DNA from: a virus
Lineage: Duplodnaviria; Caudoviricetes
IMG/VR virus record: IMGVR_UViG_3300008255_000468
Location: 1 to 24,114 of that record
DNA length: 24,114 nucleotides
Reading direction: 5' to 3' (one strand)
Position numbers and translations under genes: made by a program. Below, piece after piece: positions 1-24,114 of this stretch. The notes below the pieces were generated by a model. That model saw only the letters and a program-made list of their open reading frames with translations, made no database searches and was not told where the DNA came from. Every line of letters begins with the position of its first letter. Position 1 is the stretch's first letter.

Positions 1-26
1 ATGTTGACGAAATGTTGACACGGTAA

Positions 27-680
27 TTACTCGTTATCTGACACTGTGATGGTGTAAAGACCCTTGTTGATCTGATCTAGTTCGCCCGCGCTTGTCATGC
101 GCTTCAGTTGCATCCATATCGCTCTGCGGTCAACACCTAGCAGCACAGACAATTGTCCTGCTGTCATCGCGCCATGTGTCTGTAATGCATCCAAGACCCG
201 CGTCTTTGTTTTCGACAGAGACTTCGTCGCTTGTTTCAGCAGCATTTCGTTTTTGATCTTCCGCACCTGATTCGCTGCTGTGTGGAGCATTAGAGTTAGA
301 CACTCGCTCATTTGCGTCTCTGAGAGCAGATACAGCAAGTCATGCTTGTTGTACCAATAGTAGACAAGTGTGCGCACGACATCTGTTGGCAATCCCACCA
401 GATGAGCAGCCTTCATGAAAACGAAGAAGTCGTGCTCTTCGTCGAAATCCGGTTCTCCTGGTGGAACAGTCGAGAGTATGCGCCCGATTTGCTTGTCTTG
501 AGCGCACCACAGCTTTTTGAATTGTCGATTCAGCGGCTTGATTGTAGTGATGATATGTGCGACCTGATCGTCTGACACGCCAGTTGCAGCGAGCGAGCGA
601 ACGAATTGAATCACCGAGCGGTGAAGGTCATTTTCAAATAGTGTTGAAAAATCGTGTTTGGTGGCTTGATAAATAGGCAT
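27..680 (-). CDS. C-terminal winged-helix DNA-binding protein, putative replication initiator / origin-binding protein
   Basis: 217 aa ORF; C-terminus RVLDALQTHGAMTAGQLSVLLGVDRRAIWMQLKRM...GELDQINKGLYTI is wHTH-like; lies between the helicase and the iteron array. Confidence 0.55.
   Translation of the reverse strand: MPIYQATKHDFSTLFENDLHRSVIQFVRSLAATGVSDDQVAHIITTIKPLNRQFKKLWCAQDKQIGRILSTVPPGEPDFDEEHDFFVFMKAAHLVGLPTDVVRTLVYYWYNKHDLLYLLSETQMSECLTLMLHTAANQVRKIKNEMLLKQATKSLSKTKTRVLDALQTHGAMTAGQLSVLLGVDRRAIWMQLKRMTSAGELDQINKGLYTITVSDNE
52..96 (+). repeat. 45-bp perfect direct repeat, copy 1 (copy 2 at 23893-23937)
   Basis: GTGTAAAGACCCTTGTTGATCTGATCTAGTTCGCCCGCGCTTGTC at both sites. Confidence 0.95.
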
Positions 681-698
681 GATATTTGTTGGTATGTG

Positions 699-732
699 AA
701 ACGGCGGGTCTGCTCAAAACGACCCGCCGTTT
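699..732. terminator. Stem-loop between helicase and wHTH gene
   Basis: AAACGGCGGGTC-10 nt-GACCCGCCGTTT. Confidence 0.6.
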
Positions 733-733
733 G

Positions 734-2131
734 TTATTGGACTGGCGAAGTCTCCCAAGAAAGACTTGAACCGAATCTTTCGTCTTTCTTATCTTCCGGT
801 CTTTTCGGTTTGCGCCCGTTTCCGAATGACGTTTTCGGTGTCTCATCGTCCAGCAGCGCTTTGATTGTCATGCGAGCCTTATCGACTGCTACTTGCACAA
901 ATCCAAGCGATCCATTTCGGTTCTTCGCAATCGATATTACTTGCCGACCCATTTGCTGGTTTGCTTCGTTCTCACCAAGCGAGATCACGAAATCGGCAAT
1001 GGAGTTGATGCCATACGAGCCTGCTGTGTGTTGTGTTCCTGGTTTTAGTGATTCGCGAGCATCTTTGTTCGTCTGTGCTGCTGTGAATACGAGACAGTCA
1101 TTCTCGACTGCTAGACTTCGCAATTCTTGTGCAACAGCATTGATGATTTCGTATCCATGAATGTTGCCTGATCTGGAAGTACTGCGAGCACGGCAAATTG
1201 TCAGATAGTCCACAATGATGACATCGGGAACAAAGTTTCTTTGTGCATTGAGTTTCTTCACAAGTTCGTTGAAGTGTCCGACGTGAGACGAGCCCGTCGG
1301 GAATTCCTTGACTACGATGTCGCCAACAGTTCGCTTGTGTAGATTCTCGACCCGCTGTTTCAAATCAGGTTTTTCGAGTGCTGCCAGTTCGTCTAGTGTC
1401 AGACTCAGCAGGTTTTGATAGATGCGCTGTCGTACAACCGTTTCGGACATCTCTAGAGTGATATACAGCACTCTGCGCCCGGTGCGAAACAGGTGAGCAG
1501 CATGGTCGCAGAGAAACAGGCTCTTGCCGACGCCCGTCGCTGCTTGAACGATTCCTAGTTCCTTGCGCTTCAATCCGCCGCGTGTGGCTTCGTTCAAAAA
1601 ATCTAGATTGAACGGGATGCGCTCTGAATCGTCGTGTAGATCATCAAAAAACGAGTCGATATCGTCGCAGAGCGAGACACCGACCATATCATCGCTGATC
1701 GGTCGCTGTGCTTCTGCTAGCTGCTGCGCGAATACAGATACATCGATTGCTCGATTCTCAATCTTCGCCTTTTCCATCTCTTCAGCAGCAGCAAGTAAAG
1801 CATTGCTTGATCTAGCATTATTGACGAACGTCTTTGTTTTGTCAGCGAGCCAGCCATCGTTGATAGCGTCCTCTGAAGACTCAAGCATATCGATATACTT
1901 GAGACGTTCTTCAGTGTCGTTGCCTTTCGAAAGAAGTTTGTTTATGTCGCAACGGATCTGCAGGAATGATGGCTCTTGCTTCTTATCGACAGTGTTTGCT
2001 ATTTGAGTAAAGATCGCTTTCTCAGTCGAATCGTCGAAAAGATCTGCTGTCAGATGGTGAAACATGGTATCGCGAAAGTGTTCGTTATTCACGAGTTCGC
2101 GAAGAATGATGGCTTCAATGCGAGGTTCCAC
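734..2131 (-). CDS. DnaB-family (SF4) replicative helicase, T4 gp41-like
   Basis: Walker A AATGVGKS, YITLEM, IVVKEFPTG, Walker B PDVIIVDYL, KNRNG; RIPFNLDFLNEATRGGL and the N-terminus EPRIEAIILRELV resemble T4-superfamily gp41. Start placed at GTG 2131 (GAGGT 8 nt upstream); the track starts at ATG 2152. Confidence 0.88.
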   Translation of the reverse strand: MEPRIEAIILRELVNNEHFRDTMFHHLTADLFDDSTEKAIFTQIANTVDKKQEPSFLQIRCDINKLLSKGNDTEERLKYIDMLESSEDAINDGWLADKTKTFVNNARSSNALLAAAEEMEKAKIENRAIDVSVFAQQLAEAQRPISDDMVGVSLCDDIDSFFDDLHDDSERIPFNLDFLNEATRGGLKRKELGIVQAATGVGKSLFLCDHAAHLFRTGRRVLYITLEMSETVVRQRIYQNLLSLTLDELAALEKPDLKQRVENLHKRTVGDIVVKEFPTGSSHVGHFNELVKKLNAQRNFVPDVIIVDYLTICRARSTSRSGNIHGYEIINAVAQELRSLAVENDCLVFTAAQTNKDARESLKPGTQHTAGSYGINSIADFVISLGENEANQQMGRQVISIAKNRNGSLGFVQVAVDKARMTIKALLDDETPKTSFGNGRKPKRPEDKKDERFGSSLSWETSPVQ

Positions 2132-2184
2132 TATTGAATACCTCGATTGCATAAATATGATGGTATACTTGAGTAATCAAACAT
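2131..2184 (-). CDS. 17-aa upstream ORF (MFDYSSIPSYLCNRGIQ) overlapping the helicase start
   Basis: AGGAG RBS before ATG 2184; its TAG overlaps the helicase GTG (TAGTG). Confidence 0.4.
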   Translation of the reverse strand: MFDYSSIPSYLCNRGIQ

Positions 2185-2198
2185 GTTTTTGTTCTCCT

Positions 2199-2235
2199 GG
2201 TCACGCGATTATCTCCCGCGTGACCTTTCTTTTTG
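2199..2235 (+). terminator. Plus-strand intrinsic terminator-like hairpin, antisense to the replication genes
   Basis: GGTCACGCG-9 nt-CGCGTGACC followed by TTTCTTTTT. Confidence 0.55.
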
Positions 2236-2236
2236 T

Positions 2237-2458
2237 CTATCGCCAGATCGTCTGGTCCCAACCTTTCGCTGTCAGGATTGCGATTCCTTCGATTGAGCGG
2301 TCGCTTTTCATGCGTAGTTTAGCGCTGTCCAAAGAGCCACCCGTTTCAGTTGTCCGCAACCGATTTAATGTTGTCGGATGATATAGTTTGCCATCGATCA
2401 TAAGTGCGAACGATTGCTCTGCTATAATAATAGTTGTTGTTGTTGTTAGTCCTTCCAT
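2237..2458 (-). CDS. Hypothetical protein, 73 aa
   Basis: GAGGT RBS just upstream (GAGGTAACAA-ATG); same strand as its neighbours. Confidence 0.6.
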   Translation of the reverse strand: MEGLTTTTTIIIAEQSFALMIDGKLYHPTTLNRLRTTETGGSLDSAKLRMKSDRSIEGIAILTAKGWDQTIWR

Positions 2459-2502
2459 TTGTTACCTCACGGGCGTCTGTTCTAGCAGACGCCCGTTTCT
2501 CG

Positions 2503-2817
2503 TTATTCACAATTTGTCCACCTGTAGTTGGCTGTGTTGTAGACTGTCGCATGACGCAGCAGTTGCATCAGTTGCTTCTGACTGACATACAAGCGTGGTG
2601 TGTGCTGACGCTTTACGACCGCTCGTAGCAAGTCCTTGCGTAGCAAAATATAGATCTGTGATGGATGGCGACCGATCAGTTCTGCTGCTTCTGCAACGGT
2701 GATTAGATCATCGTCAGTCTGCTGTGCTGTCTGTTTGAATTGTTTGGCGAAGTCTTCTTCCATCGTTCGGTCGAAAGACTCGTCCTGTAGATCGGGTAGT
2801 TCCGTAAAGTTTCTCAT
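2503..2817 (-). CDS. Xis/MerR-like HTH DNA-binding protein
   Basis: LITVAEAAELIGRHPSQIYILLRKDLL motif; start placed at ATG 2817, 5 nt after CTAAATA. Confidence 0.7.
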   Translation of the reverse strand: MRNFTELPDLQDESFDRTMEEDFAKQFKQTAQQTDDDLITVAEAAELIGRHPSQIYILLRKDLLRAVVKRQHTPRLYVSQKQLMQLLRHATVYNTANYRWTNCE

Positions 2818-2822
2818 AATCG

Positions 2823-2829
2823 TATTTAG
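2823..2829 (-). promoter_or_regulatory. T4-late-like promoter CTAAATA
   Basis: 5 nt before ATG 2817. Confidence 0.6.
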
Positions 2830-3275
2830 TAACCGTGCGATTTTGACCGTCTTGTTTTTTCTCTGTTGACTCGCACATCGCCGTTTAGGTTGTAGTTGCA
2901 TACGACAGCGGTGCCGTAGACGTGGGCATCGCCGCAGATGAGGACGTTATTGAAGACATGTGCATCGCCGTAGACGCGGGCTCTGCCAAAGACGCGGGCA
3001 TTGCCGTGGACGTGGGCTTTCTCGGCTACTATCGCATCGCCGTAAACGCGGGCTCTGCCAAAGACGCGGGCATCGTCGCATACTTCAGCATTGCCGTAGA
3101 CGCGGGCATCGTTATCTACCCAACAGTTTCCGTCTTGTGAAAGGTTCGTCTCGCTTGCAATGTATCCACCGAGCGATTGCTCGGGGACATACTGCAAATT
3201 TTGCAGTGCTCGGATGCGATAGAGTGTCTGATTGTCGATCTGGATTGTGTCGCTCTGGACTAGTTCGTATTTCAT
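2826..3275 (-). CDS. Phage hexapeptide-repeat (left-handed beta-helix-like) protein
   Basis: N-terminal LYRIRAL...GGYIASETNLSQDGNCWV followed by ARVYGN/ARVFGR/ARVYGD repeats; GAGGT RBS. Confidence 0.85.
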   Translation of the reverse strand: MKYELVQSDTIQIDNQTLYRIRALQNLQYVPEQSLGGYIASETNLSQDGNCWVDNDARVYGNAEVCDDARVFGRARVYGDAIVAEKAHVHGNARVFGRARVYGDAHVFNNVLICGDAHVYGTAVVCNYNLNGDVRVNREKTRRSKSHGY

Positions 3276-3294
3276 GTCGTTGTTACCTCAATTC

Positions 3295-3301
3295 TATTTA
3301 G
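3295..3301 (-). promoter_or_regulatory. T4-late-like promoter CTAAATA
   Basis: Just upstream of the RBS of 2826..3275. Confidence 0.6.
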
Positions 3302-3516
3302 TAACCGTGTGGTTTTGGCGAGCGTGGTTAGTTCCACACTATCCAAGACAATCATACAGACGCGATTCTTCGAGCCCACAAAACCGAGAACGGAAAGAAC
3401 TGAAAACAAAGGAGAAAAGATTCGCGGGCGATACGAAAGATGCCAAAAAAACGGGCTTATAAATCTGAGATTTATTTTTGTCTGACTATTACTGTGTCGC
3501 GATTGCTGGTGCGATA

Positions 3517-3861
3517 ATGAAACTTCGCGAGGAAATCGCGACAGTGGATCAACTACAGAGGTATTACTCAGTCCAAGAGATAGCAGAATCGTGGCAACTC
3601 AGTAAAGACAAGGTGCGGGAACTCTTCCGCAATGAGGACGGAGTTCTGCGCATCCCTTCAAGTAATGAAAAACGCGGGCAGCGTGCGTATGAAACGCTGC
3701 GCGTGCCCGCGTGTGTATTGGCGCGTGTGCAAGCTCGACTTAGTTCACCCGTTGCGGCGAAGGTGCATCCGATGGTGGAACGGATGAATGTTGCACGTGC
3801 AAAGCGTCGTTCGCCCAAGTGCGTCGCACCTGATCATGCAAGGCGTCCGTTCGTCGCTTGA
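3517..3861 (+). CDS. xis: Excisionase-like HTH protein
   Basis: YYSVQEIAESWQLSKDKVRELFRNEDGV...YETLRVP; converges on and overlaps the integrase; start uncertain (3478/3517/3544). Confidence 0.7.
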   Translation: MKLREEIATVDQLQRYYSVQEIAESWQLSKDKVRELFRNEDGVLRIPSSNEKRGQRAYETLRVPACVLARVQARLSSPVAAKVHPMVERMNVARAKRRSPKCVAPDHARRPFVA

Positions 3862-4936
3862 CCCACATAGCATAGTGTTTCTCTGTTGTACTCACCTTGG
3901 CGTGTCCTAGCAACCGTGCGACATCGCTGATAGGCGTGCCAGCGATCAGCAATTCAACCGCATAGGTATGTCGAAAATTGTGTGCGGTGCGTTCCTTGAG
4001 TCCAGCGAGATTCAGCAGTTTGCGAATGCGCGTGAACCACTTAGTAGCTCGCGTGTGTAATTCGCCTTCGCCAGACCAAAAGAAGTATTTCTCGGAGTCA
4101 TGCGGACACGCCATGAGTTTCGCTAACACCCAATCGGGAACTGGAACTGTGACATCAGACCCGGTTTTTTGCCGATACGTCATGATCTTGCCTTCGTTGA
4201 CATACACGTGAGACTTTTCGAGCTTCACCAGCGTGGAGCAATCGAGCCCGGTGTATCTCATGACGTGAACGAAGGCGTCCACTTGCTGCGCAATCGCTTG
4301 ACCCTTGCGCCCGTATTCGTCCGCGAAGTCTGGCAGCACGCGGAAAACGGCTTCCATTTCGGCTGGTTCAAATGGCTTCCGATCCGTTCGCACTTCTTTA
4401 ATCGTTGGCATGGCGTGTGACGGATTGCTCTTGATCAGTTCCGCATTCACACAGAACTTGAAAAACGATTTGATGGTGTCGCGCCGATTTCTGCGAGTCG
4501 AGTTTTCGTCACTCCAGCCAGACTGCCAAGTGATCAAATCTAGTGGCGTGATTTGCTCCATGTAGACGTGATTGCGTGGACTCGCTTCCATGAAGGTCTG
4601 GAGAGCCATCAGCAATTTTCGGTACTTCGTCTGAATGGGTCTTGTGATGTCACGCTTCGTCAGCATGAAGGCGTCTATCGCTTGCTTGATGGTGCATCGT
4701 TCTGGCGTGTCCTGGACTGTGTACGGCGTCTCAAGTTCGCGTGCGAGGATTGACGCCCGCGTCCAGTCCCGGACGCCTTCGCCCGTCTCTGGATCAATGA
4801 GACGCCTATGTCTGTACGTTCCAGACCCGTCGGTGCCTTCGAAGTACACCGGACACTTCACCTTGAGCGGACACACTTTCGTCTCTTTGCCGTGGTTGGT
4901 GCATGACTTCACATGCCTTCGATATAAGCGAATCAT
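3740..4936 (-). CDS. int: Tyrosine recombinase / phage integrase
   Basis: HNFRHTYA, LLGH and TTEKHY motifs; adjacent attP; extended -10 TGcTAGACT 6 nt before ATG 4936. Confidence 0.93.
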   Translation of the reverse strand: MIRLYRRHVKSCTNHGKETKVCPLKVKCPVYFEGTDGSGTYRHRRLIDPETGEGVRDWTRASILARELETPYTVQDTPERCTIKQAIDAFMLTKRDITRPIQTKYRKLLMALQTFMEASPRNHVYMEQITPLDLITWQSGWSDENSTRRNRRDTIKSFFKFCVNAELIKSNPSHAMPTIKEVRTDRKPFEPAEMEAVFRVLPDFADEYGRKGQAIAQQVDAFVHVMRYTGLDCSTLVKLEKSHVYVNEGKIMTYRQKTGSDVTVPVPDWVLAKLMACPHDSEKYFFWSGEGELHTRATKWFTRIRKLLNLAGLKERTAHNFRHTYAVELLIAGTPISDVARLLGHAKVSTTEKHYAMWVKRRTDALHDQVRRTWANDALHVQHSSVPPSDAPSPQRVN

Positions 4937-4956
4937 GGGCAAAGTCTAGCATAGAC

Positions 4957-5152
4957 GCACCCACACTTGCACCCACACTTGGCGACTCGGAGGCTTATGT
5001 TGTTGATTTGATTGGGTTTAGAGGTTGGTGGGGGCGGCTGTGATGTTACAATTCGCTGGCGTTGAAAACACGTAACTTATTGATTTTGCAAGACGGCAAA
5101 AACGCCAGAAACGGTGAAATCGGCATGATTACCCACACCTGACCCACACTTG
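4957..5152. other. attP site: arm repeats, IHF site and tRNA-3'-like core
   Basis: GCACCCACACTT x2 (4957-4980); ACCCACACCTG/ACCCACACTTG (5131-5152); minus-strand CAGCCGCCCCCACCA (5026-5040); AATCAATAAGTTA (5073-5085, minus) matches IHF consensus WATCAANNNNTTR. Confidence 0.8.
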
Positions 5153-5225: not shown

Positions 5226-5588
5226 TTACCTACCGACAAACCCGATCAGCGTCTCGACGATCTTGCCACTGGAAACGCCGAAAATCGCAGCGGATGTCAG
5301 ACATACGAGTCCAACGATTTTCAGCCAAGTTCCGCTATCGATTGCGCCTTTGTTGGCGATTGCATCGAGCTTGGTTTTAAGCTCTGAGATCTCTTTGCTG
5401 TGAAGCAGAGCATCCGATGCTCTCGACGCTGCTGCAACCTCGTGCTGATTAATCTGAACGCTGTGTGTGGCGACTTTTGAATTGAGAGTATCGAGTCTGT
5501 TGTTGACGCCAGACACCTGATTTTGCAGCACGCCAATGCTGACTGCGATTGATTCCAGTTTATCAAAAAGCCTAGTTTGCGGGTCCAT
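5226..5588 (-). CDS. Coiled-coil protein with C-terminal transmembrane helix (holin/XhlA-like candidate)
   Basis: Heptad-rich N-terminus, hydrophobic WLKIVGLVCLTSAAIFGV; located after the tail genes. Confidence 0.5.
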   Translation of the reverse strand: MDPQTRLFDKLESIAVSIGVLQNQVSGVNNRLDTLNSKVATHSVQINQHEVAAASRASDALLHSKEISELKTKLDAIANKGAIDSGTWLKIVGLVCLTSAAIFGVSSGKIVETLIGFVGR

Positions 5589-5790
5589 CTTTTTCCACCT
5601 TCACCTTCACCAGCGCAGTGAAATCAGGCGATAGCTGATACTCACCGTCGAGTTCGTTCTGTTTCACTATCAGATAAAAGCAGCCTTTGAACATCGCGTC
5701 GAGTTCAGCAATAGTCTGCAAGATCTCTTTTCGCTTCGCGTCCAGTTCCGCGAAGACTGCTGTCTCTCTTTCGTCGAGTAAATGTTGCAT
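5572..5790 (-). CDS. Hypothetical protein, 72 aa
   Basis: Start placed at ATG 5790, 5 nt after ATAAATA; overlaps the next gene. Confidence 0.6.
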   Translation of the reverse strand: MQHLLDERETAVFAELDAKRKEILQTIAELDAMFKGCFYLIVKQNELDGEYQLSPDFTALVKVKVEKDGPAN

Positions 5791-5795
5791 GCGTA

Positions 5796-5829
5796 TATTT
5801 ATCGTTTTCGGAAAATGGAGTGGTAAATA
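5796..5829. promoter_or_regulatory. Divergent pair of TAAATA motifs
   Basis: Minus-strand 5796-5801 (5 nt before ATG 5790); plus-strand 5824-5829 upstream of the beta-barrel gene. Confidence 0.5.
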
Positions 5830-5898: not shown

Positions 5899-6399
5899 AT
5901 GAAACTCTTTACTCTTCTTTTTCTATTTGCAGCGACGGTCTTTGGACAACAAATCGCTGTGCTTGGTGGATACAACGACAACACCCGCGTGTCAGCGAAA
6001 GTCTATGCACCCGTCACCAGCCGCGTTTCCATCGGCACTCAATACAGATTCTCCAACCACGACGCTGCTGCCCTGGTATCGTTCGATGTCATTCGAGCAA
6101 GGAAACTAACAATCGCTGCTGAAGCTGGATACGGTCTTACACGTGAGATCGACACAGACATCCGCTGGCAGCTTGGGCGAATCCCTGTGTACGCTGGCAA
6201 TCGCTTGATATACGTTGACGCGGTTGTAGGTGCGGAACTGTACAAGCGTACACCATGGCTTGGTACTGCGATTGCTGGCGCTATCGTCTCATATCGATTG
6301 TCGAAACATGTTTCCATTCAGGCGAACTATCAGTTTCACGCAGTCAACCGACACGACAACAGACACGTGACGCAAGTCGGTGTCGCAATCGACTTCTAA
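5899..6399 (+). CDS. Small outer-membrane beta-barrel protein (Lom/Ail/OmpW-like architecture)
   Basis: Signal peptide MKLFTLLFLFAATVFG, alternating amphipathic strands, terminal QVGVAIDF with C-terminal Phe; GAGGT RBS. Confidence 0.75.
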   Translation: MKLFTLLFLFAATVFGQQIAVLGGYNDNTRVSAKVYAPVTSRVSIGTQYRFSNHDAAALVSFDVIRARKLTIAAEAGYGLTREIDTDIRWQLGRIPVYAGNRLIYVDAVVGAELYKRTPWLGTAIAGAIVSYRLSKHVSIQANYQFHAVNRHDNRHVTQVGVAIDF

Positions 6400-14432: not shown

Positions 14433-14982
14433 ATCTGGTAATAGTTTGCTGTGCAATCAATGCTGCCAGTGAAAACGGCAATGGTTTCGCGCCCGCTGCT
14501 TTGTCTGTGTACACTTCCCTGTTCTCGTACAAATGAGCAACGAGAAACTTAATCGCGTGCTTGGTGACATCGGGAACTAGATTCGCAGTCGCAACACCAG
14601 CGACGAAGGTCACCTTCGTCAAAATCGTTTTCTCTGGTGGCGAATCACGAATAACAACAACAGCGGGAGACACTGACAGTCGAGAAAAGTAATCCGTGGC
14701 TGGTACTTCTGTACCGTCTTCGCTGATGAACACGACAGAAGAAATGCTCGTGATCTTGAACCGTGGAATGTTAATCACTTTTTGCGCATTGTTCAGCGTG
14801 TATGAATGCGTCGATTGCATCACGACACGACCCGTTTCTTTCTCGAAGAAGCTAGTCGCGACGTGAATCAACGACTCGATATAGGTATCGTCAGCAACAA
14901 ATGCTGGCTCGATTACTAAGTGTTTCTTCGCTTCATCGGCGGTAATCGGAAGAACTGTTCTCGCTGTTAATAGTTCGATCAT
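14425..14982 (-). CDS. Head-tail connector (HK97 gp6 / SPP1 gp15-like)
   Basis: EAKKHLVI...DDTYIESLI...AIKFLVAHLYENRE motifs. Confidence 0.9.
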   Translation of the reverse strand: MIELLTARTVLPITADEAKKHLVIEPAFVADDTYIESLIHVATSFFEKETGRVVMQSTHSYTLNNAQKVINIPRFKITSISSVVFISEDGTEVPATDYFSRLSVSPAVVVIRDSPPEKTILTKVTFVAGVATANLVPDVTKHAIKFLVAHLYENREVYTDKAAGAKPLPFSLAALIAQQTITRYV

Positions 14983-14987
14983 GCAGA

Positions 14988-14994
14988 TATTTAG
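14988..14994 (-). promoter_or_regulatory. T4-late-like promoter CTAAATA
   Basis: Directly after the capsid terminator, 5 nt before ATG 14982. Confidence 0.65.
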
Positions 14995-16192: not shown

Positions 16193-16196
16193 TTTA

Positions 16197-16940
16197 CTAA
16201 ACCTCGTTTGTTTTGTAGTCGATCTCAAGTACTTGAAGCACTCGCAATAGATCATCAGGCGACATTCCTTCAACCGGCTTTTCTATTGGCGACTGAGTGT
16301 CAGCGGCTGCTGGTGTATCAGTTGCTTGCGTCTTGATTGACTCGACTATATTTAGTAGCTTGTCGATTTCCGCTTGTTCGGTATCGTTGGCGATACTTCC
16401 ACGCTCGATAACTGCTGCAACTGTATCGAGTGACACTTGCTCAACAGCAGCAAGCGAACGCACGAACGCGAATGTCTCCGCGTATGCGGGAACTGGTACT
16501 AGACTGATATCGTCGATCCACACTTTATGAAGCACATGAAGACGCGGCTGGTTTCGACGCTGAATCCATTCGTCTTTAATCACGTAAAAAGCGAACGACA
16601 TTTGTGTGATGTCGCCACGTTTGACAGACTCCAGCGTCTCGTTGCCAAGTGGCGTGTCTGGCATGTCAATCGCGAACTTCAGACCGCGTTCGTCTTGCTC
16701 GATTCGCAAAGTGTTGTTCTCGCGTCCAGCCACAAAGCGCCCGAGAACGAAGTTCTCGTTGTGATTGCGCAATGCGAGAATATCTTTCGATCTTTCCAAA
16801 TCGAAAGCGCCCGGTTTGATAACCTCGGTGAACTTATTGTTGATCAATCCAGATTCGACATTGAACAAAGCAGCATATCCGACGAGCGTTCTACCATCCG
16901 CCGATATTGTGGATTCTAAGGATCTTATTTCTTTTTTCAT
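16197..16940 (-). CDS. HK97-family prohead protease
   Basis: GYAALFN, LRNHNENFVLGR, DERGL, QMSFAF, ISLVPVPAY motifs. Confidence 0.95.
   Translation of the reverse strand: MKKEIRSLESTISADGRTLVGYAALFNVESGLINNKFTEVIKPGAFDLERSKDILALRNHNENFVLGRFVAGRENNTLRIEQDERGLKFAIDMPDTPLGNETLESVKRGDITQMSFAFYVIKDEWIQRRNQPRLHVLHKVWIDDISLVPVPAYAETFAFVRSLAAVEQVSLDTVAAVIERGSIANDTEQAEIDKLLNIVESIKTQATDTPAAADTQSPIEKPVEGMSPDDLLRVLQVLEIDYKTNEV
16349..16355 (-). promoter_or_regulatory. T4-late-like promoter CTAAATA inside the protease gene
   Basis: About 155 nt upstream of the capsid start. Confidence 0.45.
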
Positions 16941-18856
16941 TACGCGACTCCGATGCTACATTTGCATCCTTTATGCAATGGTGGGTGATACACACTTTTC
17001 TTTATTTCAAGCTCGCCTAAAATCGTTCGACCTTTCGGAACATACGATCTAGACTGAAGATCCATTTCACTTTTGTGAAGCGTCTGACAGAACTTACAAG
17101 CACCTGGATTTGTTCGCCAAGTGATCTGACTTGGTGTGTAGCCAGCAACTACATACGAATCGACTGAGTACTTTCCATTCGCTGCGACAGCGATGTCGGA
17201 TGCGTCACCGTCCAACAAATCGAATTCAGCGTCGAAGGCTTCACTGATTTTCGAAATCAAATCCTCTGGTTTCTCGACAACCACAGCAGCGACTTTGGTT
17301 AGTCGCTCTTCAGTCACTCGAATAGACAGTTCCTTACTGAATTCGTCGAGCCACGCATCGTTGTTAATATCTACCACCTGATTCAGTTCCCGTGCGATGT
17401 CTTCTGCGACACCTTTCACCAGTCCGCGAAGCGATGGCGTCAACTGTTTCTGTGTGAAGTCGCGATGATCCGTCTTGTAGAAGTCGATCAATTCGCGAAG
17501 TTGGTCTTCGCTCTGCGAGTGTCGATTGAGCAACTTCACCACGTCGATCTTTTCGCGACGCAGGATGCGCCCGAGAGCGTCAGCAATCGGCGATGCGGCT
17601 GTCGTGCTGATCGCCTGACGGAGTTCACCTTGCGCCCGCTGAACCGCTTGGATGCGTGGAACCGCTGGTGCTGGCGACAGCGAGCGAACACCTATGTCTG
17701 TTTCCGAATCGTCAGCGCTGGTGTTCAACGGGAATCGAAGTTTGTCGCCACCTGCGAGAGCGTTCAGATTCTCGCGTTCGCGGATTTCGTTCGCTGTCAT
17801 CCAGCCTGACTGGATCGCAGCGGAGTAATACTTCTGTCTCGCATCCAAATCGACACGCTTCATTGAGTCGATTAGAAATTCAAGGAAGAAATCCTTGCGC
17901 TCGAATGGTGTGAACAGTTGCGTATTGATTGCTTGCTCGATATTCACGAATCGCGGACGCAAGCTCTGCAAGAAGTTCAGACCTTCTTGCTCGATATTGC
18001 TGAAGGTCGAGCGAGACAAGTCACCGACCATATGCGAAGGGACACGAAACGCGGCTGCAATCGTTGTGCGCTGGAAGTTCTGTATCGAACTGATGTCCGC
18101 TTCTTTCAGATTCAACGAAGGCAATGGTTTGTACTCGATACCGAATGGCTCGACGAATAAGCGCCCGGTCTTTTTTGAACCACGGTGCATTTGTTCGATT
18201 TGTTCTCGGATGAATGCTTTGTCTTCTTCATCCACCTTTTCGGATGGACGCAGCGTTCCGCCCGGAAACATTCCGTTCCGGAAGAACTCGTGCGTGAAGG
18301 TTGCAGTCTCGTTGCTCGATTGAATAACGCGACGCATTTGCTCAAGCGGACTAATACCGTTGATTCCGTTATCTGTGTATTCCAGCACGTGTAGAACATG
18401 CGTGTCAGGATAGATCACGTCACGCGACTGAACAAACCACTTGCGACCGTCATGCACAACTGCTTTCAATGCGCCCGATGGAAATGGTCGGATGCTTGTT
18501 ACATCGCCCATTTCATTGCGATCAACGAAGGCGAAGAACTCGCCATGCGTGAGCAAGTTGTGTGTCAGCGTGTAGAAGAATTGATATGCGGTCTGGTAAC
18601 CATTCGGTTTGCTGTGAAGGATGTCGTACAACGGATGATCCTTCGCCCGTTGCTTTCCTGAGTCCAGCCGCTCGTAGACAATAGCGGAATTACTCGCGAC
18701 AGTCTCACACAAGATGCGGATGCAACTAAAGACAGTCTCATTTCGCGAAAGTGAATCGTCGTTCCAATTGACGATGTTGGATTCAGTTTCGATTAGCGTG
18801 TTGCTCGATTTCATCGATTTACTGATCCAATTGCGGACTGTTTTAAGTAGTTGCAT
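16940..18856 (-). CDS. HK97-family portal protein fused to a C-terminal MuF/SPP1 gp7-like domain
   Basis: Portal motifs HPLYDILHSKPN, FRVPSHMVG, STFSNIEQ, GWMTANEIRERENL end near residue 370; the extension ends WRT...CKFC...HPPLHKGCKC. Confidence 0.9.
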   Translation of the reverse strand: MQLLKTVRNWISKSMKSSNTLIETESNIVNWNDDSLSRNETVFSCIRILCETVASNSAIVYERLDSGKQRAKDHPLYDILHSKPNGYQTAYQFFYTLTHNLLTHGEFFAFVDRNEMGDVTSIRPFPSGALKAVVHDGRKWFVQSRDVIYPDTHVLHVLEYTDNGINGISPLEQMRRVIQSSNETATFTHEFFRNGMFPGGTLRPSEKVDEEDKAFIREQIEQMHRGSKKTGRLFVEPFGIEYKPLPSLNLKEADISSIQNFQRTTIAAAFRVPSHMVGDLSRSTFSNIEQEGLNFLQSLRPRFVNIEQAINTQLFTPFERKDFFLEFLIDSMKRVDLDARQKYYSAAIQSGWMTANEIRERENLNALAGGDKLRFPLNTSADDSETDIGVRSLSPAPAVPRIQAVQRAQGELRQAISTTAASPIADALGRILRREKIDVVKLLNRHSQSEDQLRELIDFYKTDHRDFTQKQLTPSLRGLVKGVAEDIARELNQVVDINNDAWLDEFSKELSIRVTEERLTKVAAVVVEKPEDLISKISEAFDAEFDLLDGDASDIAVAANGKYSVDSYVVAGYTPSQITWRTNPGACKFCQTLHKSEMDLQSRSYVPKGRTILGELEIKKSVYHPPLHKGCKCSIGVA

Positions 18857-18863
18857 ATAACAG

Positions 18864-18870
18864 TATTTAG
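18864..18870 (-). promoter_or_regulatory. T4-late-like promoter CTAAATA
   Basis: 7 nt before the portal ATG; overlaps the terL stop codon. Confidence 0.6.
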
Positions 18871-20465
18871 AAAATCATAAAGTCGCGAACTGATGACTTC
18901 TTGCGGCTGGTACTCTTCACCGACTGTTGTATGCGAGCCCGATTCGCTTTATCGTGCGCCATGATTGCCGCGATTGCTAAGTCGATTCGTTGCTTACTCA
19001 GTCGCTTCGATGGTCGGATGCGATCTGTTGAAGTCTCGCGAGTGATTGCTAGATTCTCGATACACCAGTTCAAGACTTTGTTGTCGAAGTGGCGTATTCG
19101 GTCTGTGAGAATTGCAGACTCGAAATCAGTTGTCGCTGTGTGCATCCAAGAATAGTCTTGTTTGAACTTCGAGACTGGGAACTTTCTTTCATTCAATTCG
19201 AGCATTAGCTGTGAAGCGAGAGCGATATCGAAAGCGATGTCCTTTATTTTGAAGTCTTTCGCGAGAATGTCAATGTAGTCACGAAGAACTCGTTGGTCAA
19301 CAATAGGACCCGGTGTCGCTATCAAGTGACCACTTTCGACCCACTGGCTATATGGTTGTTGATCTCGCTGTTCATGTTCTAGGAGATACGCCGCTGGTGT
19401 AAAGCCATATGGTATTAGATAAAAGAGATCGTCCTTCACCACACAACCGACGATTGCTGTTAAGTCTTTCGTCGCTGATAGGTCGATACCGACATACATG
19501 TCGAGCCCGTGAAGATCCTCGATTGTGATCTCTGTTTCCTTTAGTTTCAACCACTTGTTAATCGCGATGAATGATGTTTCAGCAGTGGTCCACAGATTCA
19601 GATAGAGTCTTTTGAACGCATTCTGTTTCTCGGGTCTGTCTTTTGCTTCTTGGCACAGTTGTTCGAATGTATCGAGAGCAATATGTTTTCCCAATGCTGG
19701 ATTTACTTTGTGCCAGACTTTCGGGTCTGTCCAATCGTCTGATGGATCTGCTTCGCGAATAAAAGCGAAGTATGAATCGTTCTCCTTTTTGCCAGCGAGT
19801 ATATCTCTCGCGTATTGCAATTCTCGGAACCAGATAGTGTTTGTATCAGTTCCCGCTGTGCTGATCATGAACAATAGAGGCTGCTGTCTAGCATGTTGGC
19901 TGGTGGTGAGAGCGTCGAAGGCTTCTTGCGCCCGTGCTTTTACCCAACCATGCAATTCGTCAAGAATGATTGCGCTTGGATTGAAACCATGCAGTTTCAA
20001 TCCTTCACTCGACACGATCATCAATCGCCCGTTGTTCGACGGTGATAGCAGTTCGTTTTGCTTTTCGATGATTCGTCTTGAAAGCCACGGTGATGCTTGA
20101 ATGTAGTCCTTCGCCATTTGCAGAGCGATGTTTGCCTGATCTTTATCGACCGCTGCAAGAATGATGAGCGGTCGTGGTTCTTCGTCTACCAACAGAAGGA
20201 ATAGGCAAAGCAGAATAACGAAGGTCGTTTTACCTTGCTTTCGTGGCAGAGCCAAAGCACAGCGTTTGAAGCGACGCAGACCATTCGCTTTCTTGCATCC
20301 GAGAACTTCGCGAAGGATGTCCCACTGATATTCGTCGAGTTCGAATCCAAGATCACCCGCCTTTTCTGTGTCGATATATCGAATCTTTTGCAAGAAATTG
20401 GCGAAGCGAATCAGCGGCTGTTCATCGAAGGTGTATTGATTCTTTACTTTTCCTTTCTTCGCCAT
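18867..20465 (-). CDS. terL: Terminase large subunit (HK97-type)
   Basis: Walker A PRKQGKTT, Walker B IILDELH, ISTAG, GIDLSATKDLTA, RIDLAIA. Confidence 0.96.
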   Translation of the reverse strand: MAKKGKVKNQYTFDEQPLIRFANFLQKIRYIDTEKAGDLGFELDEYQWDILREVLGCKKANGLRRFKRCALALPRKQGKTTFVILLCLFLLLVDEEPRPLIILAAVDKDQANIALQMAKDYIQASPWLSRRIIEKQNELLSPSNNGRLMIVSSEGLKLHGFNPSAIILDELHGWVKARAQEAFDALTTSQHARQQPLLFMISTAGTDTNTIWFRELQYARDILAGKKENDSYFAFIREADPSDDWTDPKVWHKVNPALGKHIALDTFEQLCQEAKDRPEKQNAFKRLYLNLWTTAETSFIAINKWLKLKETEITIEDLHGLDMYVGIDLSATKDLTAIVGCVVKDDLFYLIPYGFTPAAYLLEHEQRDQQPYSQWVESGHLIATPGPIVDQRVLRDYIDILAKDFKIKDIAFDIALASQLMLELNERKFPVSKFKQDYSWMHTATTDFESAILTDRIRHFDNKVLNWCIENLAITRETSTDRIRPSKRLSKQRIDLAIAAIMAHDKANRARIQQSVKSTSRKKSSVRDFMIF

Positions 20466-20884
20466 GGTGTTGCTGTCGTTTTGGTATTGTCGAGCGAGTC
20501 ATCCTCATGCTCTTCAGTCACATGTGCAATGACAGATCGAGAGCGCGGAGACAAACCTAGTTGTATACAGATCTTGTGTATCGTTGCCTGACAGTCTTTA
20601 ATAATGTTGAGCAACGGATTCTTGACTATCGTTCGTTGACCATCTACCACGAGTTCTTCTTTATTGAGAGCCACAGACGCGCGACGTTTCAGATCGAGGT
20701 TGAGCACTAGATCTTCGAGTAACAGTCGATCAACATTCTTGAGTAGGTTGCCTTCGTCTAGTAGATAGTAGACTTCGCCCCATACCTCCGATTGCTCTGG
20801 AGTGAAATAGTCGGGAATACTAGCTTCCAACTTTGGCAGTTCATCGGTGCGGACACGGGCTTGTGGTCCTGGCTTGACTTTCAT
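20444..20884 (-). CDS. terS: Terminase small subunit (P27-family)
   Basis: KNPLLNII...QLGLSPRSRS motif; directly upstream of TerL. Confidence 0.9.
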   Translation of the reverse strand: MKVKPGPQARVRTDELPKLEASIPDYFTPEQSEVWGEVYYLLDEGNLLKNVDRLLLEDLVLNLDLKRRASVALNKEELVVDGQRTIVKNPLLNIIKDCQATIHKICIQLGLSPRSRSVIAHVTEEHEDDSLDNTKTTATPWRRKEK

Positions 20885-20891
20885 ATACAGA

Positions 20892-20898
20892 TATTTAG
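20892..20898 (-). promoter_or_regulatory. T4-late-like promoter CTAAATA
   Basis: 7 nt before the terS ATG. Confidence 0.65.
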
Positions 20899-20989
20899 CT
20901 TTTTGCTTATTGACAGATCCTTTGAAGGATTATCAATAAGAGTTTTCGGTGACTAGTACTAAAATGGTAAGGACCCTAAATCCTGTCAG

Positions 20990-21070
20990 ATAGACATACG
21001 AGTCGCCAAGGGAAGGGCTTCGACCGCGAAAAACTCAGAACTTCGACCCACCCTACCCTTGCCAGCGAGA
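20990..21070 (-). other. Probable cos packaging region
   Basis: Intergenic between HNH and terS, as in HK97-like cos phages; G-rich GGGTAGGGTGGGTCGAAGTTCTGAG; exact nick sites not determinable. Confidence 0.45.
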
Positions 21071-21075
21071 AAATA

Positions 21076-21426
21076 CTATAAACCTTTGCGTGTGTAATTG
21101 ATAAAGTGACAGCGAGAGCAAAGACAAAGTACGTTTGATTTGGTGAATCGCTTCAACCACGCATCTTTTACTTTCTCGACGTGGTGGACTTCGGTCGCGA
21201 GTTGTTGATTGCACTCCTGACATATAGGTGATTCCGACAATCGCAATTCGCGAAACCGTTTCCATTCAGCGGAATTGTAGAACCGTTTCAAGATCGGGTC
21301 TTTCTTCGCTTCGAGGTTGCGCCAAGATGCGCGTCTCAAGATACGAGCATGTTCCCGACAATAGCCTTTGTCCTCGGACTGTTGATCACATCCTGCAATC
21401 GAGCACGGTGTTGAATATAGTTGCAT
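21076..21426 (-). CDS. Terminase-associated HNH endonuclease (HK97 gp74-like)
   Basis: FYNSAEWKRFR...PICQEC...EVHH...NVLCLCSRCH; start uncertain (21426 or 21471). Confidence 0.9.
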   Translation of the reverse strand: MQLYSTPCSIAGCDQQSEDKGYCREHARILRRASWRNLEAKKDPILKRFYNSAEWKRFRELRLSESPICQECNQQLATEVHHVEKVKDAWLKRFTKSNVLCLCSRCHFINYTRKGL

Positions 21427-21516
21427 GTGTAGAAACACCGATGGCGCTGTGAAACCCTCGCGAAGAAGCACAGCGCCATCGAGACTCTAATTTGGAGAAA
21501 ATTAAATGAATCACTT

Positions 21517-21768
21517 CTATTTAGACGCCGTGAGAATTAGCGGCTGGAAATCGTCCAAGCATGTTTTGTTTCTCGCTGCAAGAAACGTCTGAAGATCCGT
21601 GATCAGTTTCACTTTGCGATATCGGATGTAGGACGGTGTTACTTTGTACTTCTTCTGCAATACATGTGACAGTTTGCTTTCGTCGAGAATGTCTTCGATC
21701 AATTCTCGATCAAGAGAATTGAACAGATCGATCTCTTCAATGACTTGCTCTTGTAGTGTCTTTCGCAT
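21517..21768 (-). CDS. Small helical, putative DNA-binding protein (sigma-region-4/RinA-like position)
   Basis: 83 aa upstream of HNH-terS; LSHVLQKKYKVTPSYIRYRKVKL is HTH-like; CTAGATA variant 5 nt before ATG. Confidence 0.45.
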   Translation of the reverse strand: MRKTLQEQVIEEIDLFNSLDRELIEDILDESKLSHVLQKKYKVTPSYIRYRKVKLITDLQTFLAARNKTCLDDFQPLILTASK

Positions 21769-21773
21769 ACAAG

Positions 21774-21802
21774 TATCTAGCTAGACGCGGAAAGCCTAAA
21801 TA
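21774..21802. promoter_or_regulatory. Divergent pair: minus-strand TAGATA variant and plus-strand CTAAATA
   Basis: 21774-21779 lies 5 nt before ATG 21768; 21796-21802 lies upstream of the fibre gene RBS. Confidence 0.55.
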
Positions 21803-21833
21803 CTGGATAGCTTCACACAATCGAGGTAGATAA

Positions 21834-23543
21834 ATGGCTTGGATGCTTCCACGAGTCGCGAAAGAACTTATTCGCGCATCACATATCAATACGCTTATCC
21901 AACAAATCCAGCAGTGGCAAGGCAACGTCGATGCAAACAGCAATCGCCTTATCAATATAGCCAATGCGATCAACAACGGTGATGCAATCAACAAAGGACT
22001 GCTAGACAGCGGGCTCGCAACGAAGGCAGCGTCGAGCCACGCGCATGCAATTGCTGATGTCACTTCGTTGCAAACAAGTCTCGATGGCAAAGCAAGCACC
22101 AGCCACAGCCACGCGATTGCTGACGTTACGAGCTTGCAGACTTCACTAGACGCGAAGGCAGCATCAACACACGGACACGTGATCAGCGACACGACGGGCT
22201 TGCAGACAGCACTCGATGGCAAGGCAGCATCAAGCCACACGCACGGGCTTGCTGATCTGACAGCGACGGGAACTAAAGACTCGACTACATTTCTCAGAGG
22301 CGACAACACCTGGGCAGTTCCCGCTGGTGGTGGTGGATCCGTGGAATGGGGAGACATCACGGGCACGCTGGCATCACAGACCGACCTTCAGACAGCGCTC
22401 AACGGGAAGGCGTCGAGCACACACAGTCACGCAATAAGCGATGTCACCAGTCTGCAGACCACGTTGGATGGCAAGGCTGCATCTAGTCACGGGCACGCCA
22501 TGGACCAAATCACTGGCTTGGAGTCAGCGCTTGGTGGCAAAGCAGCATCTACGCACAGTCACGCTATTGCGGACACCACTGGCTTGCAGACAGCACTGGA
22601 CGGGAAGGCAGCATCAAGCCACGGACACGTGATCAGCGACACAACGGGCTTGCAGACCACGCTTGATGGCAAGGCAGCGTCGAGCCACACGCACGGTCTG
22701 TCAGACCTGACAGCGACGGGCACCAAAGACTCGACAACCTTTCTGCGTGGCGACAACACTTGGGCAGTTCCCGCTGGTGGATCGAATTACATTGCGCCCG
22801 GTGCAATTGCAAGCAGACCAGCCGCCAATACCGTTGCGGCTGGATCTGTATATCTAGCCACAGACATACTAAACAAACAATGGATCAGCAACGGCACTGA
22901 TTGGATATCTGTCTATCACTCGCAGCCAGTGGTCGATCCTCCGGCTGCATCAGCATGGTCGCTGGTTTGGAATCATCCGTCGACAGCTACTACACTCACA
23001 GACCTTGGTGGTGGTGCTATCGAGCTAATAAGCGCTGTAGGCAGTGCTTCGCGCTATGGTGGATATGCTCGCATCGCTGTTCCAACAGCGACAGAGTGGT
23101 ATATCGAAGCAGACATCGATTTCCAAATGGCGTCGGGTGTCGTAACGAACTGGCTTTGCGGTCTCGGCTTCTTCACAGGAACCGATAGCTCTGATCTACA
23201 GGCGTGGTTGATAAATGTCTTTCCTGGCGCTAACAGGCAGCATGGCGTCGCTATTGCGAGAACGGACACAACTATCAATGACGCGCAAACAAACAGCACA
23301 TCGATCTACGGTGACTACTCATTACTCCCATTTTCGCGTACTCGATACAGAATCGGGCGCATCGGATCAAATAAAGTATTCGGTGTGTCGTTCAACGGAC
23401 AAACGTGGCTTGAGTACACAGCTGGATGGACAAGCACTTGGACACCGACCCATGTCGGTTTCGGTGTCCGGACTGGTGGTGGTGGATGGGAACGCGGGCG
23501 CGCGAACCTACATCATTGGCGAGAGATCATCGTAACAGCATAG
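21834..23543 (+). CDS. Fibre protein with HxH phage-tail repeats and a C-terminal globular (lectin-like) domain
   Basis: Nine KAASSHxH-type units of about 22 aa; TFLRGDNTW twice; aromatic beta-rich C-terminus; GAGGT RBS. Confidence 0.8.
   Translation: MAWMLPRVAKELIRASHINTLIQQIQQWQGNVDANSNRLINIANAINNGDAINKGLLDSGLATKAASSHAHAIADVTSLQTSLDGKASTSHSHAIADVTSLQTSLDAKAASTHGHVISDTTGLQTALDGKAASSHTHGLADLTATGTKDSTTFLRGDNTWAVPAGGGGSVEWGDITGTLASQTDLQTALNGKASSTHSHAISDVTSLQTTLDGKAASSHGHAMDQITGLESALGGKAASTHSHAIADTTGLQTALDGKAASSHGHVISDTTGLQTTLDGKAASSHTHGLSDLTATGTKDSTTFLRGDNTWAVPAGGSNYIAPGAIASRPAANTVAAGSVYLATDILNKQWISNGTDWISVYHSQPVVDPPAASAWSLVWNHPSTATTLTDLGGGAIELISAVGSASRYGGYARIAVPTATEWYIEADIDFQMASGVVTNWLCGLGFFTGTDSSDLQAWLINVFPGANRQHGVAIARTDTTINDAQTNSTSIYGDYSLLPFSRTRYRIGRIGSNKVFGVSFNGQTWLEYTAGWTSTWTPTHVGFGVRTGGGGWERGRANLHHWREIIVTA
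22023..22780 (+). repeat. 66-bp coding tandem repeats plus an internal duplication with 450-bp offset
   Basis: About 22154-22330 matches 22604-22780, mostly with third-position differences. Confidence 0.9.
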
Positions 23544-23551
23544 GTGGAATC

Positions 23552-23797
23552 ATGACGAAACAAGACTTAGAGCATATCAGTGAGAGAAAAGCACTACAAG
23601 CAGAGCTTGATCAATACAAGCAAGACCCGAACTTTATTCAGTTTCTTGATTTCATGCGGGTCTATCAATCAATGCCGGAGGCAATGACGGATAAAGAAGC
23701 AGATCGCTTTATTGATGAAGCAGTTGCGAAAGATCCGACACTGGCTGGTGTGGATGTTGTCGCAGAGAGACTGTCTCGGAAAACATTATCTAAATAA
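23552..23797 (+). CDS. Hypothetical protein, 81 aa, downstream of the fibre gene
   Basis: AGGTGG RBS before ATG 23552; followed by a terminator. Confidence 0.65.
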   Translation: MTKQDLEHISERKALQAELDQYKQDPNFIQFLDFMRVYQSMPEAMTDKEADRFIDEAVAKDPTLAGVDVVAERLSRKTLSK

Positions 23798-23819
23798 CAT
23801 CGATTGCTGGATGTTCAAA

Positions 23820-23862
23820 CAAAACACCCGACTGGTTTCGATCAGTCGGGTGTTCTTGTTTT
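23820..23862. terminator. Probably bidirectional intrinsic terminator
   Basis: AACACCCGACTG-8 nt-CAGTCGGGTGTT with A-rich and T-rich flanks. Confidence 0.8.
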
Positions 23863-23892
23863 AGATGTGTGTGGTTAGACACTTCTATGATT

Positions 23893-23937
23893 GTGTAAAG
23901 ACCCTTGTTGATCTGATCTAGTTCGCCCGCGCTTGTC
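23893..23937 (+). repeat. 45-bp direct repeat, copy 2 (duplicate of the wHTH gene 3' end)
   Basis: Identical to 52-96. Confidence 0.95.
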
Positions 23938-23974
23938 GTGCCACTTCTGGATAGTCTAGTTTTGTTGTTGTCAT
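23918..23974 (-). pseudogene. 18-aa ORF or truncated gene remnant (MTTTKLDYPEVARQARAN)
   Basis: Strong AGGAG RBS; runs out of frame into the 45-bp duplicate and stops. Confidence 0.35.
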
Positions 23975-24012
23975 ATGTGTTCTCCTAATGTTCGCTGTTA
24001 TTGTTCCCAAAA

Positions 24013-24114
24013 CGTCAACATTTCGTCAACATTTTATTTTGACCCGTCAACATTTTCGTCAACATTTTTGGCTATTCTTTTAAGTATGATCATACTAAGA
24101 AAATAAGCAAAAAA
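24013..24114. repeat. Iteron array and AT-rich palindrome, putative replication origin (continues into 1-20)
   Basis: CGTCAACATTT at 24013, 24024, 24045 and 24057; two inverted copies at the junction/1-20; perfect palindrome AGTATGATCATACT at 24083-24096. Confidence 0.7.

Follow-up and report, generated by a model that had tools for sequence, protein, structure and literature searches.

The viral record IMGVR_UViG_3300008255_000468 of IMG/VR was analysed over its whole length of 24,114 nt (hereafter the window). It holds a small temperate, phage-like element that joins an HK97-type head and tail set and an integrase to a helicase resembling that of T4-like phages and to repeated (C/A)TAAATA boxes reminiscent of T4 late promoters. 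A first-pass annotation had proposed from the sequence that the element builds its own particle and relies on a T4-like helper for late transcription, replication and lysis.

A closed genome with its own virion and integration genes

IMG/VR lists the record as linear, with a CheckV completeness of 33%. An independent contig (L365) bridges the two ends: it aligns to window 1656-1, runs through 32 extra bases lying between window 24114 and window 1, and continues along 24114-23935 and 23845-22786. Because this contig joins position 24114 to position 1, the genome is a complete circle of 24,146 bp. A second assembly measures 24,287 bp, that is 24,146 + 141, the extra 141 bp presumably being the usual assembler overlap, and the element was recovered with variants in further assemblies. 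Since L365 lacks window 23846-23934, two forms exist in the population. Twenty-nine open reading frames (ORFs) cover 93% of the window, the largest gaps being 317, 283, 202 and 191 nt. This coding density, the closed circle and an intact attP bear out the first-pass view of the genome as complete.

Pfam and PHROG profiles were run on 30 window ORFs and NCBIfam on 24, gap ORFs included; 162 frames are listed for the window, most overlapping real genes, and the profile scans took in part of these. Pfam and PHROG matches identify HNH, TerS, TerL, portal, S78 protease, HK97 capsid, adaptor, head closure, neck and terminator proteins and, for the tail, the tail tube, a tail T chaperone, the tape measure and the fibre. 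An 840-aa protein is placed as the tail hub by position only. The head and tail set that had been claimed is thus recovered in full, with that qualification for the hub, and the element encodes virion proteins, as a satellite virus does. The int, xis and attP claimed together with it were likewise found: the integrase gene, an Xis-like ORF convergent with it, and an attP that has four arm repeats.

3478..3861, plus strand: Xis-like protein, convergent with the integrase; a homologue adjoins the integrase in 23 of 26 genomic loci
3740..4942, minus strand: tyrosine integrase of an Acidobacteriota family (Pfam, integrase alignment)
4959..5152, no strand: attP, four arm repeats around a 13-nt core (5026-5038) that equals the tmRNA 3' end at 12 of 13 positions; tmRNA junctions are seen in L292 and L311
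6396..13725, minus strand: tail module with hub, tape measure, two chaperones, tail tube and terminator; boxes at 12741, 12833 and 13307 (Pfam, PHROG)
13732..14994, minus strand: neck, head closure and adaptor (Pfam); CTAAATA 5 nt before the adaptor ATG
15056..18870, minus strand: HK97-type capsid, protease and portal; boxes at 16349 and 18864 (Pfam, PHROG)
18867..21524, minus strand: TerL, TerS and HNH; boxes at 20892 (7 nt before TerS) and 21518 (Pfam, PHROG)
21796..23543, plus strand: CTAAATA box and tail-fibre gene with PTR repeats (Pfam, PHROG)

TAAATA boxes, helicase and predicted origin

MTAAATA occurs at 15 sites against 2.16 expected, and none of 100 shuffles reached 15. Of the 105 words that permuting its letters gives, CTAAATA, with 11 copies, is the second most frequent; its count alone is therefore not unique, and the case for the boxes rests on their position. 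Twelve of the 15 precede genes on the coding strand: 11 are minus-strand sites ahead of minus-strand genes or within reach of them, and the twelfth precedes the plus-strand fibre gene. Six stand 4-8 nt before an ATG (P 5e-4); at this spacing a T4-type transcript would begin at the start codon or close to it. Two directly follow terminator hairpins (box 12741 after the hairpin at 12754-12789, the adaptor box after the terminator at 15004-15035), the box at 18864 is 7 nt before the portal ATG, and that at 16349 is 160 nt before the likely capsid start. No -35 motif emerged over 46 pooled sites. A TAAATA core about 5 nt before the start, as judged from ATG spacing, and no -35 element is the layout of a T4-type late promoter. 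The placement of (C/A)TAAATA first reported is confirmed. The T4 late octamer TATAAATA itself has no exact match in the window, and allowing one mismatch gives 11 sites against 7.2, which is no enrichment.

In T4 the late box occupies -13 to -6, and CTAAATA is the in-silico late consensus of the T4-like phage Aeh1 (PMC1524935); we also find CTAAATA just upstream of gp23 and gp22 in phiM12. T4 late promoters have no -35 element and require gp55, which alone gives basal activity and with gp45 and gp33 several hundred-fold more (PMC2988020). We consider the boxes likely to be T4-type late promoters read by gp55.

The helicase has eight PDB matches, three of them at E about 1e-50 (best 7e-51, residues 15-416), against 2e-7 for bacterial DnaB. 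The top entries are what we take to be T4 gp41; one of them, 8dtp, carries the tool label 'DnaB-like'. Its best phage matches, at 31-34% identity, are annotated as gp41 or primase-helicase of T4-like phages; the nearest database proteins are P0002 (39%, on a 280-kb contig) and P0003 (37%, on a 3.2-kb contig), and no close relative was found among the viral contigs searched. A FastTree of 33 rows with two host DnaBs places it on the gp41 side, at a distance of 0.92 against 3.06 to host DnaB. On this sequence evidence we assign it to the gp41 family, in keeping with the first-pass remark that it is nearer gp41 than DnaB.

A 46-kb T4-like fragment of GC 0.53 (G803, L378-L380), carrying gp41, uvsX, gp43, gp44, gp46 and a primase, has a helicase that branches near the element's; we regard it as a candidate helper lineage. 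TAAATA is not enriched around the gp41 genes of T4-like contigs, which is uninformative because these are replication regions.

24013..24114, no strand: left half of the predicted origin, four direct 11-nt repeats (at 24013, 24024, 24045 and 24057) and an AT-rich palindrome (24065-24114), running on across the junction; four inverted copies follow in L365
1..20, no strand: right end of the predicted origin, the last two of the four inverted repeats; the 32 nt before position 1 lie outside the window
27..680, minus strand: 217-aa protein with a C-terminal winged helix-turn-helix (HTH_24 and AbiEi_4 matches, residues 155-211), adjoining origin and helicase
669..742, plus strand: ATAAATA box then hairpin, antisense to the leader of the 217-aa gene (fold -22.8 kcal/mol, without shuffle control)
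734..2152, minus strand: T4 gp41-family replicative helicase (PDB and phage-protein matches, tree)
2151..2236, plus strand: ATAAATA box then 9-bp hairpin and U tract, antisense to the helicase leader (motif, fold)
2237..3275, minus strand, upstream of the helicase: YdcK-type solenoid protein, Xis-like HTH_17 protein (likely start 2817) and two small ORFs
2420..2506, plus strand: extended -10-like box then intrinsic terminator (2469-2496), antisense to the start of ORF 2237..2458 (sequence)

The repeats and palindrome at the junction, beside the winged-helix gene and the helicase, are predicted to form the replication origin. The 217-aa protein, whose fold model has a pLDDT of 41, is a predicted origin-binding initiator or helicase loader, with a repressor also in play; 57 nt of the 3' end of its gene recur at 95% across the origin (window 23885-23941 and 44-100). 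The units at 669-742 and 2151-2236 are predicted to give late antisense RNAs and that at 2420-2506 a host-read one. The operon at 2237..3275 follows two CTAAATA boxes (3295-3301 and 2823-2829), both with a common 16-nt upstream extension (window 2818-2845 and 3290-3317) that is possibly an operator. The GTG start of the helicase also appears to be where a short upstream ORF, itself with a strong ribosome site, ends.

Relatives in Bryobacterales and the functions not recognised

Aligning the integrase yielded 26 loci in GTDB genomes, all from Acidobacteriota and mostly from Bryobacterales. The host is thus likely to be an acidobacterium, with the tmRNA gene of Bryobacterales as the predicted integration site. 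In Paludibaculum fermentans T20B24 the same integrase family belongs to a 29-kb prophage whose limits are the tmRNA 3' end and a repeat of it, with near-identical gene order and a GC of 0.52 against 0.64 for the host. Its boxes number 11 sense and none antisense. Pfam scans of its 35 ORFs recognised head, tail and fibre proteins and no repressor, replication or lysin family; it has only about five small early ORFs, its HNH protein shows weak sigma region 4 matches, and neither a gp41-like helicase nor gp55 was found in the P. fermentans genome. The other 25 loci had no virion gene in the flank fetched.

Two IMG/VR records are close kin. G404, for which CheckV gives 44%, has 13 sense boxes and one antisense, and L385 has 10 and none in 20 of 30 kb. 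Both are 76-80% identical in DNA to the P. fermentans prophage, and the three therefore form one lineage. Expected counts are 0.5-0.7 per relative element, host flanks hold 0/0 and 0/1, and GC is 0.49-0.53 in the elements against 0.62-0.64 in the flanks.

Of 401 Bryobacterales genomes a single one, G264, matched the gp55 family (E 2e-43). The gene lies in an integrated 47-kb prophage beside tRNA-Leu (G264:C1:59000-106050; L359-L362, equal to L384) and not on a T4-like contig. This prophage has a GC of 0.53 against 0.62 for its host, a lambda-type terminase, portal, protease and capsid, tail genes recognised by size and position only, and 11 sense boxes with none antisense. Its gp55 keeps the conserved residues, looks intact, matches the gp55 genes of T4-like phages and is immediately followed by a box. 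Among the 56 ORFs scanned, a set short of the full list by a 1,489-aa ORF and a few small ones, no family for replication, CI or lysin turned up. The presence of a gp55 gene and such boxes in one element links the motif, indirectly, to gp55 within Bryobacterales.

The element is one of at least three lineages in Bryobacterales. Box-wired relatives, which the first-pass annotation had set out as worth seeking, do exist. No second element joining a gp41-like helicase to an HK97 module turned up among 80 terminase, 80 helicase and 120 motif loci, which were T4-like or ordinary phage DNA, and a motif scan of metagenomes returned only this element (two stretches). The helicase is not a feature of the class, the P. 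fermentans and G264 genomes being without a gp41-like one. A second gp41-like gene lies in a low-GC island of another genome (G373:C5:2089500-2095000, L375) with a serine recombinase, insertion sequence fragments and no virion genes; a helicase of G403 was ruled out as not gp41-like. T4 core genes are thus found three times in Bryobacterales elements (gp41 here and in the G373 island, gp55 in G264), and from these three captures we infer that T4-like phages enter these cells.

As a control we searched the 401 genomes for terminases, obtaining 49 matches in 37 genomes, and fetched 30 loci. The P. fermentans locus has four sense boxes in 4.6 kb, and two of the 29 others have one each. Since the remaining 27 of 29 are without it, the box is not a general late promoter of Bryobacterales prophages, although a background exists. 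G350, G235, G329 and G204 were examined as members and dropped; the G329 control stretch has 1/4 boxes, and in G204 host genes surround a terminase remnant.

Some further observations concern the relatives. About 1 kb without a long ORF precedes the first late box of the P. fermentans prophage (L292 14300-15270), 72 nt of which recur at 83% elsewhere in that genome (L310 1501-1572), and a similar gap precedes the G264 gp55; such gaps may be an origin or encode an RNA. Small basic proteins recur (L292 12373-12744; L352 5067-5435; L360 4567-4848 and 5082-5465) and, by eye and with no family match, are possible nucleoid-binding-like silencers. A glycosyltransferase family 2 gene sits in the head-tail connector cluster of the P. 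fermentans prophage (L311 12701-13360) and also in G404. Two loci with the same or a related integrase, L351 and L343 (G350:C33:1-12300), look like cf-PICIs (phage-inducible chromosomal islands that form capsids), with int, xis, primase-like ORFs, HNH, terminase and head genes; L351 has no sense box, and G350 has one ATAAATA and one GTAAATA.

In the window ORFs no sigma, CI, primase, polymerase, single-stranded DNA-binding protein (SSB) or lysin family was detected with Pfam, PHROG or NCBIfam, scans that divergent proteins could escape, and gp55 was absent from this record (G000), the P. fermentans genome (G001) and G404. The helicase is the only recognised part of a replication set, which is accordingly not self-sufficient. 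By the same scans the element has none of the CI-type repressor, late activator and endolysin of an autonomous lambdoid or HK97 phage. Nor does it have the gp23, gp43, gp45 and gp55 of a T4-like phage: its capsid is of the HK97 type, and no gp55, polymerase or clamp family was recognised. Neither gp33 nor gp45 was matched in the five box-carrying elements. Structural Atlas searches of window proteins gave matches below 0.9 or none, PADLOC on 19 proteins returned only weak HTH matches, in two of them, and Rfam matched tmRNA and tRNA in the relatives and nothing in the window.

The remaining genes of the window are the following.

5226..5802, minus strand: ATAAATA box, 72-aa ORF starting 5 nt after it, and 120-aa coiled-coil protein (no family match)
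5899..6399, plus strand: outer-membrane beta-barrel moron (OMP_b-brl, E 2e-4)
21517..21768, minus strand: 83-aa ORF upstream of the packaging operon (no family)
23552..23864, plus strand: 81-aa ORF, CTAAATA box at its stop and strong terminator 23823-23854 (motif and terminator scan)

The 120-aa protein has a C-terminal hydrophobic segment and is a predicted holin-like protein; this region weakly matches the ORF at the same position in G404. The 83-aa ORF had no match in Pfam (curated cut-off), PHROG, NCBIfam or PDB. As a shared sigma-region-4 protein it was rejected, having no family support, and the proteins of the relatives are only 14-25% identical to it.

Proposed dependence on a helper and the alternatives

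Because the boxes are T4-late-like, the relatives share the same wiring and one of them has its own gp55, the missing sigma factor would have to come in trans. We think it probable, with some reserve, that these elements are satellites with complete virions of their own and that gp55 arriving in trans, most likely brought by a lytic T4-like phage, activates them. As a prophage in the tmRNA gene of its Bryobacterales host, the element would stay silent for want of gp55, a shortage that, aided by the small antisense RNAs, would take the place of a CI repressor. The gp55, gp33 and gp45 of an invader would then switch on its operons, many of whose mRNAs would have no leader or almost none. The 217-aa winged-helix protein may bind the 4+4 inverted repeats at the junction and load the element's own gp41, which in turn would recruit the gp61 primase and gp43 polymerase of the helper. 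The DNA would be cos-packaged into the element's own heads and tails and the particles released by the helper's endolysin, perhaps hastened by the holin-like protein.

Several observations weigh against this reading. The search of 401 genomes of the order and 401 of the phylum turned up no T4-like contig carrying gp55 (the phylum scan gave a weak gp55 match in G477), and neither the 280-kb P0002 contig nor G803 is tied to an Acidobacteriota host. Tunturi 5, a jumbo myovirus of Acidobacteriota (PMC11924767), was discarded as helper, having no gp55, only a remote helicase and 5 boxes against 9 control matches. Of the T4-like helper first proposed, the part that stands is a sigma factor from outside, to which the relatives' wiring and the G264 gp55 point; no T4-like donor was found in Acidobacteriota. 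The helicase branches at the base of the gp41 side, outside the T4-like crown group and with a long-branch warning (FastTree only). Box counts are not wholly clean either, since longer control stretches in 39-40 kb hold 4/0 (G204, P 0.004) and 4/2 (G235). xis and int have no consensus box, and induction therefore needs another signal. Finally, three HTH proteins (217, 104 and 127 aa) are possible repressors or activators, and the tape measure weakly matches a PHROG labelled endolysin (E 3e-4). The absences first listed (repressor, sigma, primase, polymerase, SSB and lysin) hold in that no family passed, and no sigma, repressor or lysin fold came out of the small ORFs; the HTH proteins stay candidate regulators.

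G264 is also an example of a temperate phage with a gp55 gene, and by itself gp55 is basally active on supercoiled DNA (PMC2988020). The factor might accordingly come from a co-resident temperate phage like the G264 prophage, and not from a lytic one, with the host replisome doing the rest. In its favour are the Bryobacterales prophage that pairs gp55 with the same boxes, the basal initiation that gp55 supports by itself (PMC2988020) and the failure to find a lytic T4-like phage for the phylum. We nevertheless judge this unlikely: the G264 element, with no replication or lysis family recognised in its 56 ORFs, looks like another dependent, and gp55 prophages are rare (1/401), the P. fermentans genome having a box-wired prophage and no gp55. 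Moreover, T4 gp41 works with gp61 primase and not with host DnaG.

An autonomous temperate phage, in which the boxes are read by a protein of the element that escaped recognition or by an alternative sigma factor of the host, an HTH protein represses and an unrecognised enzyme lyses, seems to us less likely again. It could draw on the three HTH proteins, on six small ORFs without assignment for which structure prediction and Atlas searches yielded nothing, and on the endolysin-labelled match of the tape measure. No unassigned protein was shown to be common to all elements, given the 14-25% identity to the window's 83-aa ORF, and the P. fermentans element gets by with its few small early ORFs and no replication gene. 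The 27 of 29 other terminase loci of the host order without a box, and the fact that the sole sigma-bearing element has gp55, argue the same way. Least likely of these, in our judgement, is decay, in which the elements would be remnants of larger gp55-using temperate phages that lost the early module, without adapted parasitism. The CheckV values of 33% and 44% (G000 and G404) would suit it, as would the differences in which T4 gene each element keeps and the scarred G373 island with gp41 and no virion genes. Yet the window represents an excised circle whose attP is intact and which recurs, with variants, in further assemblies; it is 93% coding and its virion genes are open. The DNA of the P. 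fermentans, G404 and L385 elements diverges by 20-24%, and they nevertheless keep boxes and open frames.

A satellite dependent on a helper's gp55 would differ from those described. The first-pass statement that known satellites borrow capsids and/or tails proved too broad, since MiniFlayer has its own capsid and tail fibre; it has only short fibres and binds the helper virion, and no primase is described for it (PMC10690885, PMC13587820). The Streptomyces satellites MiniFlayer, MulchRoom and Ando resemble the element in being small, with their own terminase, portal and capsid, no primase reported and a large virulent helper; MulchRoom and Ando also carry an integrase, and Ando is described as without lysis genes. 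Ando, by these accounts, has no tail and appears to use helper tails, and the MulchRoom gene list shows none (PMC10690885, PMC13587820). In contrast, the element has its own tube, chaperones, tape measure, hub and fibre, a captured gp41 and gp55-type boxes.

The PLE of Vibrio cholerae is likewise integrated and activated by a lytic phage, ICP1, whose transcriptional progress and replication machinery it needs (PMC13595925; 10.1101/2024.04.22.590561). It takes ICP1 virion parts, and its interference has been shown (PMC13595925), whereas the element encodes its own virion and differs from a PLE in having capsid and tail genes and no Vibrio host. cf-PICIs are integrative with their own capsid and packaging genes; their tails are stolen, whereas the element has a full tail (10.1101/2022.09.08.507074). 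EPIPs and the jumbo-phage island I55 are described as depending on helper virion parts.

Where cf-PICIs have no tail genes, tail tube, tail T, tape measure, terminator and fibre are present here. cf-PICIs have an HK97-type head, and cf-PICIs and PICIs carry their own primase-replicase (pri-rep) and an AlpA/Stl regulator or repressor; in the element no primase family was recognised, and its HTH matches are HTH_17 and winged-helix only. Ordinary HK97- and lambda-like temperate phages share its virion gene order, integrase-xis pair and tmRNA or tRNA target; they differ in that no CI/Cro pair, Q/RinA-type activator, O/P, primase or endolysin is recognised here and in that about 11 dispersed promoters stand in place of one late operon.

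With T4 late transcription it shares a short -10-only box, no -35 element and about 5 nt to the start, CTAAATA being the Aeh1 variant (PMC2988020, PMC1524935). Here, by contrast, the boxes lie in 24-47-kb temperate siphophages, four of five without gp55 in the sequence examined (20 of 30 kb for L385). In the literature searched (mostly titles and abstracts, without supplements), neither a full-tailed, gp55-wired satellite nor a gp55 inside a temperate siphophage is described.

From its gene content, then, the element acts like a satellite virus outside PICI, cf-PICI and PLE and possibly represents a new class, helper-dependent satellite status being a proposal. We lean, by a narrow measure, towards a new class of parasite: fully tailed temperate Acidobacteriota phages without repressor, primase, polymerase or lysin, with all operons on T4-type late promoters. 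An invader's sigma factor would be their induction switch, two unrelated head chassis (HK97 and lambda type) would be in use, and gp41 or gp55 would have been captured to win the helper's replisome or RNA polymerase.

If this is true, the satellite bargain is inverted, the whole virion being kept and transcription, replication and lysis borrowed. Strand-biased TAAATA boxes without early genes would provide a sequence signature with which to re-read 'incomplete' or 'cryptic' prophages. A T4-like phage of Acidobacteriota, a phylum dominant in soil with few isolates, is predicted. One member sits in the chromosome of a cultured bacterium, P. fermentans T20B24, so the idea is testable there.

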